Shown here: positions 1 through 11,319 of the stretch, one piece after another
Layout: each line of letters starts with the position of its first letter
How positions within the stretch are numbered: the stretch's first letter is position 1
Assembly (NCBI RefSeq): GCF_022846255.1
Contig: NZ_AP025682.1
Source: Escherichia coli
GTDB taxonomy: Bacteria > Pseudomonadota > Gammaproteobacteria > Enterobacterales > Enterobacteriaceae
Strand: one strand, 5' to 3'
Length of the DNA: 64,000 nucleotides
The notes under the pieces: generated by a model
The model's input: the letters and a program-made list of their open reading frames with translations, nothing else
Database searches by the model: none
What the model was told of the DNA's origin: nothing
Made by a program: the position numbers and the translations under genes

Positions 1-173
1 TCGCAGCAGAAAAGAATATTTTCCGAATCCGCATCCAGCAGACGCACGTGCCATTTCCCTTCAGGAAGCAATACACGTGCACCATCATTAAAGTCATAAA
101 AAATATTTTCAGGCCCTGCCTGCGTTGGCGTGTCAGGCGGAGAGATAAAAAATCTATTCTTCAGCGTTGACAT
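1..173 (-). CDS. Partial CDS (N-terminal 57 codons only; gene runs off the window start): hypothetical protein, first gene downstream of the LuxR-like regulator
   Basis: Minus-strand ATG at 173 preceded by AAGGT Shine-Dalgarno-like motif ~8 nt upstream; reading frame open to the window edge (MSTLKNRFFISPPDTPTQAGPENIFYDFNDGARVLLPEGKWHV...). Absent from the ORF track because it is truncated. Confidence 0.35.
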   Translation of the reverse strand, partial: MSTLKNRFFISPPDTPTQAGPENIFYDFNDGARVLLPEGKWHVRLLDADSENILFCC

Positions 174-443
174 ATTTTTACCTTCAAAAATATATAAGCG
201 TTGAAAAGTACGATGAGTACGCTAAAAATATAACTAAAGTGTCTTTCTTATGATGAGTAACACCCATCGCACGGTTCTGATATTCTTCTGTAATAGCAGA
301 GATGAGTTCACATATGACATTCTCACGATGTCACACCTCGCGCATTCCATTACATTTACCCAACGACTTTAGTCGTTGCAGATGAAATGCACCCTGCATT
401 ATTTCCGGCTACGCGCAGGAGTTAGTTTACAGTTTACGTGCAG

Positions 444-467
444 AAAGACTTATCAATTTCGGAAGTG
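444..467. repeat. Left copy of a 23-bp direct repeat (AAGACTTATCA[A/G]TTTCGGAAGTG) bracketing the recombinase/regulator module
   Basis: 22/23 nt identical to 4195..4218 in the same orientation; read directly from sequence. Confidence 0.7.
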
Positions 468-496
468 TATCCGGTCAGTACGTAACGTTACAGCGC

Positions 497-1114
497 TTAC
501 AAAAACGTCCTGTTCATTATCCATGCAATATCATTCCGGTTTCTCAGACCGATTTTAAATATCGCCTTTTGTCGGTAGTAACACACATTGCTGTAATGTA
601 TCTGCATACGCTTTGCAATATCACTTACAGTTTCACCGCCAAGAAGTGCATTTATCACCTGTCGCTCATTAGCACTTAAACGCTGAAATCTATACCCACT
701 ACTTATATAGCGAGAAGGCACGGTCAGAATGCGCAGAAAAATATTTTTCAATTGATGAAAGCTTTGTGACGGAGAAATCCAGGTAAAAGGATATTTGATA
801 TTATTCTGCCCTCCCTGATGGCCAAATAAAATGCATGGAGTCCCTCTCAGTTCGTGGCGTTCAGAATAAAGGACTGACAGATTCCACAAAAACCACAAGG
901 CCTTCACAATCACTGATGACTCATGGCAGGTGAGATCTACCACAATGACACTCTGTTTCCCGGGGAGGTGTCTATCAGACAGAATATGCGACACAATCTG
1001 CTCCGGTGTTTCCACGGAATTAACCTGAACAGCATGTTGCCCGGCACTTTCCATCACTGCAAAAAGCCCGAGGCGGGTGTACTGACACTGACTCATCAAA
1101 AATATCTGTTTCAT
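497..1114 (-). CDS. LuxR/FixJ-family HTH transcriptional regulator (C-terminal LuxR-type helix-turn-helix; N-terminal domain of unclear type)
   Basis: ORF 205 aa; C-terminus LSANERQVINALLGGETVSDIAKRMQIHYSNVCYYRQKAIFKIGL fits the LuxR-type HTH pattern; ATG at 1114 overlaps the stop of the upstream gene (ATGA), suggesting translational coupling. Confidence 0.6.
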   Translation of the reverse strand: MKQIFLMSQCQYTRLGLFAVMESAGQHAVQVNSVETPEQIVSHILSDRHLPGKQSVIVVDLTCHESSVIVKALWFLWNLSVLYSERHELRGTPCILFGHQGGQNNIKYPFTWISPSQSFHQLKNIFLRILTVPSRYISSGYRFQRLSANERQVINALLGGETVSDIAKRMQIHYSNVCYYRQKAIFKIGLRNRNDIAWIMNRTFL

Positions 1115-1575
1115 CCGTATTTTGTCAGCTCCTGAGGAGCCTGTTCATTCCGTTTTCTCGATACCATCCACTGACGTAGTTTCTGAAATTTTGTCTGTGG
1201 CCTGAGTGACTGCTTTGCTGCGGGGGCAACAGGTTCCAACTGAACATCCAGTTCTGCTCCTGAACTGGCCGGGATTTCCTGCGGATCCTGTATATCCAGG
1301 ATCCGAAGAGCGCGTCTTCGTCCCGTTGTCGGTTCGTTCTGTATGAAGCGCCTGCTGCGGATATGGTTTCGTCCCTCGTGCTCAATGTAATACAGAATAT
1401 CTTTTGCTGTTCTCTGGGTTATATGAAACTCCCGGCTGACCGCCTCAACTGTCAGTAACCTGCCGGTTCGCATCCCCCAGAAGGTCACGATGATATACAG
1501 TGGTCGAGCCTGCATGTCCTGAACACACTCAGGACAGAAAAAATGTCTCTTTATTCGTCTGCGTCTCTCAGGCAT
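1111..1575 (-). CDS. CaiF/GrlA-family-like transcriptional regulator
   Basis: ORF with ATG at 1575 preceded by AGGTGG RBS (track ORF starts 3 codons earlier at an alternative start); segment RPLYIIVTFWGMRTGRLLTVEAVSREFHITQRTAKDILYYI resembles the CaiF N-terminal HTH region (KPLYLLIAEWMM...AREISIHFDIEHSKAVNTLTYIL) from memory. Confidence 0.5.
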   Translation of the reverse strand: MPERRRRIKRHFFCPECVQDMQARPLYIIVTFWGMRTGRLLTVEAVSREFHITQRTAKDILYYIEHEGRNHIRSRRFIQNEPTTGRRRALRILDIQDPQEIPASSGAELDVQLEPVAPAAKQSLRPQTKFQKLRQWMVSRKRNEQAPQELTKYG

Positions 1576-9070: not shown

Positions 9071-9133
9071 AACTCCATGAGTGCTGTGGTATGTCTTTTT
9101 AATCCTGCCAGTATTTCATAGTTTTTCTTAATC

Positions 9134-9176
9134 GATTGTAGAGGCATGTACTGATGACGCCTCTACAATCTTTAGG
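9134..9176 (+). terminator. Candidate hairpin terminator downstream of yhiL
   Basis: 12-bp perfect inverted repeat GATTGTAGAGGC ... GCCTCTACAATC (13-nt loop) followed by TTTAGGGACTTT. Confidence 0.35.
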
Positions 9177-9331
9177 GACTTTCTCTACTATGAGATAAGA
9201 AATTTCATATTATGCTTTAAGGCTGAATGATTTGTGCAAAATATAATTATTTTCCCGTCGAACATGAGGTGTATGTCATAAGATTAAATGATAACTATGT
9301 ATTCCTTGCGGTGAATTATATGAGGTAAAAG

Positions 9332-10954
9332 ATGAAACTTGGAACTGTGGCAGGCACTAACGACAGTATAACGACTATCGCAACAAATGATATGGTGCAA
9401 GAGCATGTTACTAACTTCACTAAAGAACTGTTTGGGTATATTGCAAATGGTATAGGTGATGATATATCAAGTATTGCCAGGACAATGCTCGGTGAAGTTG
9501 TGGAAAAAATTGATGATTGGCAAATAGAACGTTTCCAACAATCTTTTCAAGATGACAAAATTTCATTTACCATAGAAACGAATCATTCAGAAAAATATAG
9601 TATGCTATCGGGCATGCGTGCCCATATTCTACGTAGGAATAATAGTTATCAGTTTATTGTGACAATTAATAGTAAAAATTACGGTTGCCCTCTTGATGAT
9701 ACCGATATTAATTGGTGCAGCATTGTTTATTTACTTAATAATATGACAGTAAATGATAATGCTAATGATGTTGCAGTTACTGAGTCGTACAAACCCATCT
9801 GGGACTGGAAAATATCGCAATATAATGTATCTGATATTAAATTCGAAACAATTATAAAACCCCAGTTCGCTGACAGAATCTATTTCTCCAATTGTTCACC
9901 CGTTGATCCCACAAGTACCAGACCAACCTATTTTGGTGATACCGATGGCTCAGTCGGTGCAGTTTTGTACGCGCTTTTCGCAACGGGACATTTGGGAATT
10001 ATGGCTGAAGGAGTAAATTTTCTTAGCCAGTTGCTTAATATAGAAGATGAAGTTCTCAATGTTTTATTAAGGGAAAACATTAATGAGGAACTAGACATTA
10101 ATGTTAATACAATAATCAGTATTCTGAACAGAAGAGATGTTGTTTTAGAAAGTATTCAGCCATATTTAGTTATTAATAAAGGCGCAGTGACGCCATGTAC
10201 GTTTCTGGGGGACCAAACCGGCGATCGATTTAGTAATATCTGTGGCGATCAATTTATCATCGATTTGTTAAAACGCATAATGAGTATCAATGAAAATTTT
10301 CATGTATTAGCTGGTAATCATGAAACGAATTGCAATGGTAACTATATGCAGAACTTCACGCGTATGAAACCACTTGATGAGGATACCTACGACGGGATAA
10401 AAGATTATCCTGTATGTTTCTATGACCCCAAATACAAAATAATGGCAAATCATCATGGGATAACTTTTGATGATCAGCGAAAACGTTACATTATAGGACC
10501 GATAACAGTCTCTATTGATGAAATGACCAATGCTCTCGATCCGGTCGAATTAGCGGCAATTATTAATAAAAAGCATCATACTATAATTAATGGTAAAAAG
10601 TTTAAAACTAGCCGGGCTATCTCTTGTCGATCCTTTAATCGTTATTTTTCTGTTTCGACAGATTACAGACCTAAACTTGAAGCACTATTAGCATGCTCAC
10701 AAATGTTAGGTATAAATCAAGTTGTTGCACATAACGGAAATGGTGGGAGAGAACGCATAGGTGAAACGGGGACAGTTTTAGGTCTTAACGCCCGTGACAG
10801 TAAACATGCTGGAAGAATGTTCAGCATGCATAATTGCCAAATTAACCCTGGTGCGGGGCCTGAGATAACCACTCCCTGGAAGTCTTACCAGCATGAAAAA
10901 AACAAAAATGGACTTATGCCTTTGATTAGAAGGCGCACAATGTTACAGCTCTGA
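9332..10954 (+). CDS. yhiJ: YhiJ (DUF4049-type protein), paralog of YhiL; metallophosphoesterase-like motifs
   Basis: 540-aa ORF with GAGGT RBS; blocks TYFGDTDGSVGAVLYAL, TPCTFLGDQTGDRFS, VLAGNHE, NHHGIT conserved with YhiL. Confidence 0.75.
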   Translation: MKLGTVAGTNDSITTIATNDMVQEHVTNFTKELFGYIANGIGDDISSIARTMLGEVVEKIDDWQIERFQQSFQDDKISFTIETNHSEKYSMLSGMRAHILRRNNSYQFIVTINSKNYGCPLDDTDINWCSIVYLLNNMTVNDNANDVAVTESYKPIWDWKISQYNVSDIKFETIIKPQFADRIYFSNCSPVDPTSTRPTYFGDTDGSVGAVLYALFATGHLGIMAEGVNFLSQLLNIEDEVLNVLLRENINEELDINVNTIISILNRRDVVLESIQPYLVINKGAVTPCTFLGDQTGDRFSNICGDQFIIDLLKRIMSINENFHVLAGNHETNCNGNYMQNFTRMKPLDEDTYDGIKDYPVCFYDPKYKIMANHHGITFDDQRKRYIIGPITVSIDEMTNALDPVELAAIINKKHHTIINGKKFKTSRAISCRSFNRYFSVSTDYRPKLEALLACSQMLGINQVVAHNGNGGRERIGETGTVLGLNARDSKHAGRMFSMHNCQINPGAGPEITTPWKSYQHEKNKNGLMPLIRRRTMLQL

Positions 10955-11319
10955 ACCATAGACAACATGAATATTAATGTTACTATCTGGTTGAGACTGT
11001 TGATAAAACGTAATAAGGAATGCTCTGTTCCTGCAACTGAACAGGCGTGAAACGCTATCCAACAGGATGGATACCGTTTTGTCAGCCAGTTTTATAGATC
11101 ACACTTATGAGTATGCGTGTTTCATTTACGGCCAGGAATGCTGATGATGACAACATTACTACCCGTTTTCACTAAGCCTTCCACGTTGGCGCTCAATGCT
11201 CTGCGCGCTGGTCGTATTTGCCGTTTCCTTCTTATCCCGGATGGAAGAATCCGCTGAACGTCGTTCGGCGGCAGTTGTAACACGCGTCGTTTGCTTACAG
11301 GGATTATGGCGGGTCGATT

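Follow-up and report, generated by a model that had tools for sequence, protein, structure and literature searches.

The stretch of DNA analyzed here, called the window throughout, comprises 64,000 nt of one strand of Escherichia coli contig NZ_AP025682.1 (NCBI RefSeq assembly GCF_022846255.1). Its left 11 kb, which ends just ahead of the yhiI-rbbA-yhhJ operon, is considerably richer in A+T than the rest. Based on our analysis, it is highly probable that the slot between yhiN and yhiY has received foreign insertions repeatedly, namely a recent transposon, an older yhiM and an old yhiL-yhiJ pair, and that the resulting AT-rich DNA is recognized by H-NS. This conclusion is based directly on composition, codon usage, the transposon ends and the duplication beside them, presence or absence among genomes, synteny and rate discordance. 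In itself the finding adds nothing new, because the literature on E. coli K-12 already lists the orthologous locus as foreign and H-NS-bound. The one visible G+C step, in our reading, would cover three acquisitions of very different age.

The compositional step

The original prediction placed a compositional break between an AT-rich left 11 kb, with long A/T runs in its intergenic regions, and a GC-richer part from yhiI onward. Our measurements agree with this description, as both sliding G+C and the codon adaptation index (CAI) differ between the two parts. G+C is 0.409 at positions 1-11100 and 0.534 at 11101-64000. In a 1-kb sliding profile, values range from 0.33 to 0.50 up to ~11 kb and from 0.44 to 0.61 beyond. 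Change points were located by maximum likelihood across the whole window, which put the best single one at 11175 (log-likelihood gain 292). This position falls within the small gene yhiY (11144-11257, + strand), downstream of the yhiJ stop (10954) and upstream of the yhiI start (11320). The right flank from 11 to 20 kb (G+C 0.572) lies above the window mean, which makes the step look sharper. A transition spacer with a G+C of 0.40 (10955-11143) leads into yhiY and then the yhiI-rbbA-yhhJ operon (11320-16243, + strand), which are core DNA with a G+C of 0.55-0.58. A second change point at 7036 separates a G+C of 0.442 (1-7036) from 0.351 (7037-11175), ahead of 0.572 (11176-20000); the left part is heterogeneous in composition.

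The same division was seen in the genes, which were called by transferring annotations from related E. coli genomes. G+C content at third codon positions (GC3) is lower in all ten left-hand genes (0.29-0.52) than in any of the 39 core genes that served as the reference set (0.54-0.74; Mann-Whitney p = 7e-7), and codon-usage distance also sets the left-hand genes apart. The most extreme are yhiL and yhiJ, which lie 6.4-8.4 standard deviations under the core for G+C and GC3. CAI, calculated with the weights of Sharp & Li 1987, is 0.185-0.26 on the left, whereas the core genes average 0.348 +/- 0.062; rare codons make up 5-16% versus 2.3%. Tracts of at least 10 bases consisting only of A or T occur at 3.5/kb on the left and 0.34/kb in the core part to the right, rising to 5.45/kb within 7251-11100. 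Intergenic G+C is 0.372 on the left versus 0.436 on the right. The native islet of AT-rich DNA, as seen in a K-12-like strain that lacks the transposon, measures 5,429 bp at a G+C of 0.379 and extends from yhiN (0.55) to yhiI (0.58).

A Tn7-like transposon at the end of yhiN

Positions 1-5710 (G+C 0.440) represent the cargo and left end of a Tn7-like transposon of the Tn6230 type, and the window begins inside this element. The Tn6230-type label was assigned by insertion site and described features. These 5710 bases are 96.5% identical to NZ_CP045712, where they form the distal part of a ~22.5 kb element. That element opens directly after yhiN with tnsA, tnsB, tnsC and a tnsD-family gene, carries tibA and tibC, and is a compositional mosaic, with a G+C of 0.38-0.43 for the tns genes and 0.53-0.54 for tibA and tibC. 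Among the 5426 complete E. coli genomes of our population survey, only 7 contain at least 80% of window positions 1-4360.

The terminal region of the element (5608-5710) reads inward as TGTGTAGAGCCAATAAAGTTGTATCC... and contains a repeated AAAGTTG motif. The opposite end in NZ_CP045712 (L006, positions 8515-8545) reads TGTTCAAAAACAATAAAGTTGTGCCC... and pairs with the window end as an imperfect inverted repeat. The termini are of the TGT...ACA type, with imperfect inverted repeats and internal repeated motifs of the transposase-binding type. In a K-12-like strain (L002) the empty site is GATTTGATTGCAGCAAAGTCGTCCTGA, which corresponds to the last codons of yhiN. Comparison with this site identifies ATTGC (5711-5715) as a target-site duplication that borders both ends of the element and, together with the final 21 bases of yhiN, occupies 5711-5731 (+ strand). 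The insertion point is 16-21 bp ahead of the yhiN stop codon. Taken together, the terminal inverted repeats and the 5-bp duplication relative to the empty site are the signature of Tn7-type transposition. An IS3-family insertion sequence (IS; 4367-5607, + strand) sits 103 bp inward of the transposon terminus, with 45-nt terminal inverted repeats and open reading frames at 4437-4754 and 4781-5590, and is annotated as IS3 in the relative. Its insertion may have removed inner transposase-binding sites and immobilized the transposon.

yhiM

Next to the transposon lies yhiM (6046-7098, - strand; G+C 0.472, GC3 0.50), which encodes a DUF2776 inner-membrane protein (Pfam, expect value [E] 5e-158) and has been linked to acid resistance and export of gamma-aminobutyric acid. 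The ratio of nonsynonymous to synonymous substitution rates (dN/dS) for yhiM is 0.03, a constraint like that of core genes. Identity of the YhiM protein is at least 79% within Escherichia and then goes straight to 55-61% in Alphaproteobacteria, Betaproteobacteria and Actinobacteria. E. albertii is without yhiM, with a 20-residue C-terminal match (E = 0.028) as the only possible remnant. Judged from these comparisons, the phyletic distribution of yhiM is patchy. The gene is also present in strains without yhiL-yhiJ. In one of these, GN04133, the yhiM allele (L003, positions 10448-11500) shares 90% protein identity and 79.7% DNA identity with that of the window. Its synonymous divergence (dS) is 1.47 versus 0.015-0.095 for the neighboring yhiI, rbbA and yhhJ, and this discordance suggests allelic replacement from a distant lineage. 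The diverged allele accompanies the absence of yhiL-yhiJ. A search for traces of mobility found none for either yhiM or yhiL-yhiJ.

The yhiL-yhiJ block

From ~7.1 to 11.0 kb, yhiL and yhiJ with their spacers have a G+C of 0.35. The block begins with a divergent spacer between yhiM and yhiL (7099-7480; G+C 0.314), the K-12 orthologue of which has been published as a promoter island and an H-NS site. It continues with yhiL (7481-9070, + strand; DUF6860 plus DUF4049; G+C 0.339, GC3 0.29) and yhiJ (9332-10954, + strand; DUF4049; G+C 0.370, GC3 0.31). yhiL is intact in the window and frameshifted in a K-12-like strain. The pair was found in 4286 of the 5426 genomes, always once and on the chromosome, and in most cases with 90-95% identity to the window; it is missing from 21% of E. 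coli. Homology to GN04133 restarts at 10958, just past the yhiJ stop. The boundaries of the parts that vary in presence among strains are 5710/5711 and 10957/11090. The right boundary of the block is the site of the compositional step. The yhiJ-yhiY spacer also contains a ~95-bp insertion or deletion relative to strains without the pair (10995-11089), with a short hairpin CTGTTC...GAACAG.

A tblastn search of GN04133 for remnants of yhiL-yhiJ gave nothing credible. This fits deletion as well as a block that was never present; however, synteny in E. albertii favors loss or replacement. The order in that species is yhiN-yhiL-yhiJ-yhiY-yhiI, with the same step (G+C 0.36 for yhiJ and 0.59 for yhiI). 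Its YhiL and YhiJ proteins are only 52% and 57% identical to those of the window, versus 97.5-99.2% for YhiI, RbbA and YhhJ. Correspondingly, yhiL and yhiJ of the two species differ with a dS of 0.8-1.2, versus 0.08-0.26 for the flanks, while within E. coli the dS of the two genes equals that of the flanks. Their dN/dS is 0.2-0.47 versus 0.02-0.06 in core genes. From synteny and substitution rates, the pair appears to be old at its position and weakly constrained, and it has probably been exchanged more than once. In an indexed search, all relatives of DUF4049 came from E. coli, Shigella or E. albertii. An exhaustive search of 1.84 billion representative proteins gave 77 matches, mostly fragments. 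A scan of species genomes was uninformative: one DUF4049 alignment offered no conserved stretch of use, and another gave 42 pattern matches, none of them confirmed.

H-NS and promoter-like sequences

Between positions 5600 and 16600, all 24 sigma-70-like sites lie at or before 10986, and none is in yhiI-rbbA-yhhJ. In K-12, promoter islands have been reported inside yhiL and in the yhiL/yhiM spacer (Panyukov & Ozoline 2013, PMC3661553). According to that compilation, the yhiL island is H-NS-bound in all chromatin immunoprecipitation-on-chip (ChIP-chip) studies compiled, and its gene is flagged as foreign by the methods of Nakamura and of Lawrence & Ochman. The spacer island is H-NS-bound in the data of Kahramanoglou and of Oshima and was flagged as foreign by three methods, those flagging the K-12 locus being Nakamura, Lawrence & Ochman, and Price (PMC3661553). 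Systematic evolution of ligands by exponential enrichment (SELEX) placed K-12 H-NS sites in the yhiL/yhiM and yhiJ/yhiL spacers and left the yhiI/yhiJ spacer without any (Shimada et al. 2014, PMC3946193). In a K-12 hns mutant, yhiM was up 10.75-fold, and in gel-shift assays H-NS bound preferentially to the yhiM promoter (Krin et al. 2010, PMC2984483). By analogy with K-12, H-NS would be expected to silence the locus in the source strain and the transposon cargo as well.

Interpretation and alternatives

Based on these observations, we propose that the break at ~11.1 kb would be the fixed right edge of a yhiN-yhiY slot that has repeatedly received foreign DNA. The most recent layer would be a rare Tn7-like insertion into the last yhiN codons, which would have brought in the tib locus of enterotoxigenic E. 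coli (ETEC). A second layer would be yhiM, an older import that now appears to serve as a well-constrained acid-resistance gene. The third would be yhiL-yhiJ, a paralogous DUF4049 pair confined to Escherichia, already present at this position in E. albertii and lost or replaced in about one-fifth of E. coli. H-NS would recognize the AT-rich promoter-like sites and A/T tracts; in K-12 it occupies the region of yhiM, yhiL and yhiJ and represses yhiM directly.

The original prediction regarded the left-hand DNA as horizontally acquired, probably silenced by H-NS, and abutting the yhiI operon. Foreign origin is supported by separate signs for each component: ends and duplication for the transposon, patchy distribution and dS for yhiM, and polymorphism and dS for yhiL-yhiJ. 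Silencing gains support from the K-12 data for the corresponding locus (ChIP-chip, SELEX, the hns mutant and the gel assay), which concern K-12 and not the source strain. As a qualification, three acquisitions of different age are indicated rather than one island. All parts of the left 11 kb are contiguous and fall under the core in G+C and CAI, as would be expected if the whole had arrived once as one island, yet we regard this as extremely improbable. We rejected a single-island origin on the distributions of its parts, with 1-5710 in 7 genomes, yhiL-yhiJ in 4286, and yhiM in strains that lack yhiL-yhiJ. Moreover, the terminus and target-site duplication at 5710/5711 record an event of their own, yhiL-yhiJ occurs in E. 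albertii although yhiM does not, and composition changes a second time at 7036, within the left part.

It is also conceivable, though in our judgment unlikely, that yhiL and yhiJ are native Escherichia genes that became AT-rich through mutational bias, weak selection and low expression. The family is essentially restricted to Escherichia and has no donor that we could find, the genes are syntenic in E. albertii, their dN/dS is 0.2-0.47, and their dS within E. coli matches the flanks. However, when E. coli is compared with E. albertii their dS amounts to 4-10 times the flanking values, they are cleanly absent without remnants from 21% of genomes, and a G+C of 0.35 is far under the outcome of relaxed selection elsewhere in the window. 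Conserved catalytic-type motifs and distant Metallophos and WipA_Phos relatives (described below) further suggest an old fold rather than a de novo gene. A functional rather than historical step, in which the AT-rich DNA would be retained to insulate the yhiI operon, as a promoter island or H-NS nucleation domain with a regulatory or nucleoid-structuring role, is in our view very unlikely. Promoter-like sites that are dense up to 10986 and absent afterward, the promoter island in K-12 and the preservation of the step in E. albertii would all suit such a role, but the AT-richness continues through coding sequence under some purifying selection, and the absence of yhiL-yhiJ from one-fifth of E. 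coli indicates that the stretch is dispensable.

Several points weigh against our preferred interpretation of repeated foreign insertions into an H-NS-recognized slot. No donor for yhiL-yhiJ was identified in the DUF4049 searches. The dS values obtained by the NG86 method are near saturation in very AT-rich genes and are rough estimates. The tns genes of the source strain would lie beyond the window, and we infer them from the 96.5%-identical relative. All of the evidence for H-NS binding and repression is from K-12 and not from the source strain, and our literature search found no H-NS data for the transposon and tib cargo at 1-5710. The high-affinity H-NS motif TCGATAAATT, allowing at most one mismatch, is not enriched, with 8 matches in the window versus 5 expected, and none of them is in 1-11100. 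This motif is not obligatory for H-NS binding.

The tib cargo and a candidate invertible segment

The window begins with the 5′ end of tibC (1-173, - strand), which encodes an autotransporter O-heptosyltransferase and was identified by blastn to an annotated coding sequence (96%). Upstream lie tibD/tibB regulators of the tibDBCA operon (497-1515, - strand), one LuxR-type (497-1114; Pfam GerE) and one CaiF/GrlA-type (1111-1515; Pfam CaiF_GrlA). Over window 1-2425, tibC and both regulators match their counterparts in ETEC H10407 with 98% identity. These are followed by two tyrosine invertases of the FimB/FimE type on the - strand (1942-2604 and 3594-4145; NCBIfam PRK09870/PRK09871, E 1e-57 to 1e-76) and, between them, an AraC/Rob-like regulator on the + strand (2755-3597; Pfam HTH_18).

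A ~265-bp segment between the FimB/FimE-like invertase and the tib regulators (1744-2008) is inverted relative to H10407, with boundaries at 1739-1743 and 2010-2014. Window positions 1739-2014 align in reverse to H10407 with 93.5% identity over 277 bp, and on either side the two sequences are colinear. Short imperfect inverted repeats form the boundaries; the left boundary is the center of a perfect 19-nt palindrome. The inversion alters the C-terminus of the invertase, and the recombinase that adjoins it is of the FimB/FimE type (NCBIfam PRK09870, E 5e-76). The seven genomes with the full island agree with the window in orientation. In about 13 ETEC-type genomes the match falls into two pieces as it does in H10407, the only genome in which the inversion itself was checked. 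The segment has one promoter consensus match (TTGACA-17-TAGATT, 1748-1776, + strand), a count not above chance. As oriented in the window, this match faces away from the tib genes; in H10407 it would face them. Based on its sequence features, the segment is a candidate for a fimS-like phase switch of tibDBCA.

The tib pathogenicity island, PAI tibA, is a low-G+C island whose insertion site was called elusive in a 2020 review (PMC7545054). The Tn7-like element supplies a defined vehicle and insertion site for this locus. Our literature search found no link between tibA and Tn7, and the location of tib on a Tn7-like element may be new, as may the ~265-bp inversion beside a FimB/FimE-like invertase.

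DUF4049 as a possible metallophosphatase

Among 18 DUF4049 sequences with identities down to 15%, residues D203, D205, G206, G293, D294, D298, R299, G328, H330, H374 and H467 are invariant. The resulting pattern, GDxDG / GDxxDR / GNH[DE] / H / H, is of the calcineurin-like type (DxH...GDxxDR...GNH[DE]...H...GH), with Asp in place of the canonical His in the first motif. YhiJ matches Pfam Metallophos at E 0.006, which is under the cut-off, and also has a sub-threshold match to the Wip effector family; distant DUF4049 relatives pass Metallophos and touch WipA_Phos. A sequence-profile search of the PDB with DUF4049 gave no match at E <=1. The AlphaFold model of YhiJ has a mean predicted local distance difference test (pLDDT) score of 67, with 75-97 in the core. 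In a Foldseek search with this model, the only significant PDB matches were to Legionella WipA (probability 1.0, E 1.7e-4, global TM-score 0.3-0.4). Based on the model and the motifs, YhiJ and YhiL may resemble WipA-type metallophosphatases, a predicted relationship that may be new; a literature search found no paper on DUF4049. The match provides a first functional lead for two K-12 genes of unknown function. In the K-12 literature (PMC11002266, PMC5217608), yhiJ and yhiL are tabulated as SOS-regulated with late induction, and a study of acid-resistance regulation tabulates yhiJ as one of its top 20 repressed genes.

With the above in mind, one can speculate that yhiL-yhiJ encode WipA-like phosphatases of the phosphoprotein phosphatase (PPP) fold that are Escherichia-only, H-NS-silent, several times faster-evolving than their neighbors and repeatedly swapped or lost at a single fixed slot, as an effector-like or conflict-related module and not inert foreign DNA, and that tib has been mobilized by a Tn6230-type transposon and is phase-switched in a fimS-like manner. 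We offer this combined scenario tentatively, as it is possible rather than probable.

Other features of the window

Some further observations concern the remainder of the window. At 16243-16252, yhhJ is followed directly by nikR. This junction is a second integration hotspot that is empty here; K-12-like strains have rhsB-yhhH-yhhI at this point, other strains an aldolase/phosphotransferase system (PTS)/GntR cluster, and E. albertii hicAB. A RecQ-family helicase gene and a DprA-like gene in the gntU-yhgN interval (56337-59635) lie under the core genes in GC3 (0.47) and CAI (0.23-0.24), and are probably a further accessory insertion. The spacer between panM and livK (37469-37891; G+C 0.336) is the source of a dip in the profile at 37-38.5 kb. 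In the region encoding the FtsY N-terminus (31427-31499), 73 bases here correspond to 31 in strain A13, between colinear alignments.

Comparison with known systems

The fold predicted for YhiJ is best compared to that of WipA from Legionella pneumophila (PDB 5N6X, 5Y9O), a phosphatase that is a Dot/Icm effector and has a metallophosphatase fold of the PPP type. DUF4049 retains the GDxDG, GDxxDR and GNH[DE] motifs and two further His residues. In contrast, YhiJ has only ~12% sequence identity to WipA, Asp in place of the canonical His in the first motif, and an N-terminal domain of its own.

For the tib locus, the closest comparison is PAI tibA (ROD-13) of H10407. There, the locus occupies another chromosomal site and is surrounded by IS elements, the invertase is cut off by IS600, and the ~265-bp segment has the opposite orientation.

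Tn6230 targets an attachment site in yhiN, known as hotspot #3, between yhiN and yhiM (PMC10121019; PMC11406308 Table 1). Similar to Tn6230, the element in the window lies at the 3′ end of yhiN in the yhiN-yhiM interval and has TGT...ACA imperfect repeats, internal motifs and a 5-bp duplication, with tnsA-tnsB-tnsC and a tnsD-family gene known from the relative NZ_CP045712. It differs in its cargo, which is the tib adhesin locus with invertases rather than defense systems, and in the IS3 element that breaks up its end region.

Finally, the window orthologue of the K-12 promoter islands is equally AT-rich and equally dense in promoter-like sites. The two loci differ in that yhiL is a pseudogene in K-12 and intact here, and in that a transposon lies between yhiN and yhiM here.

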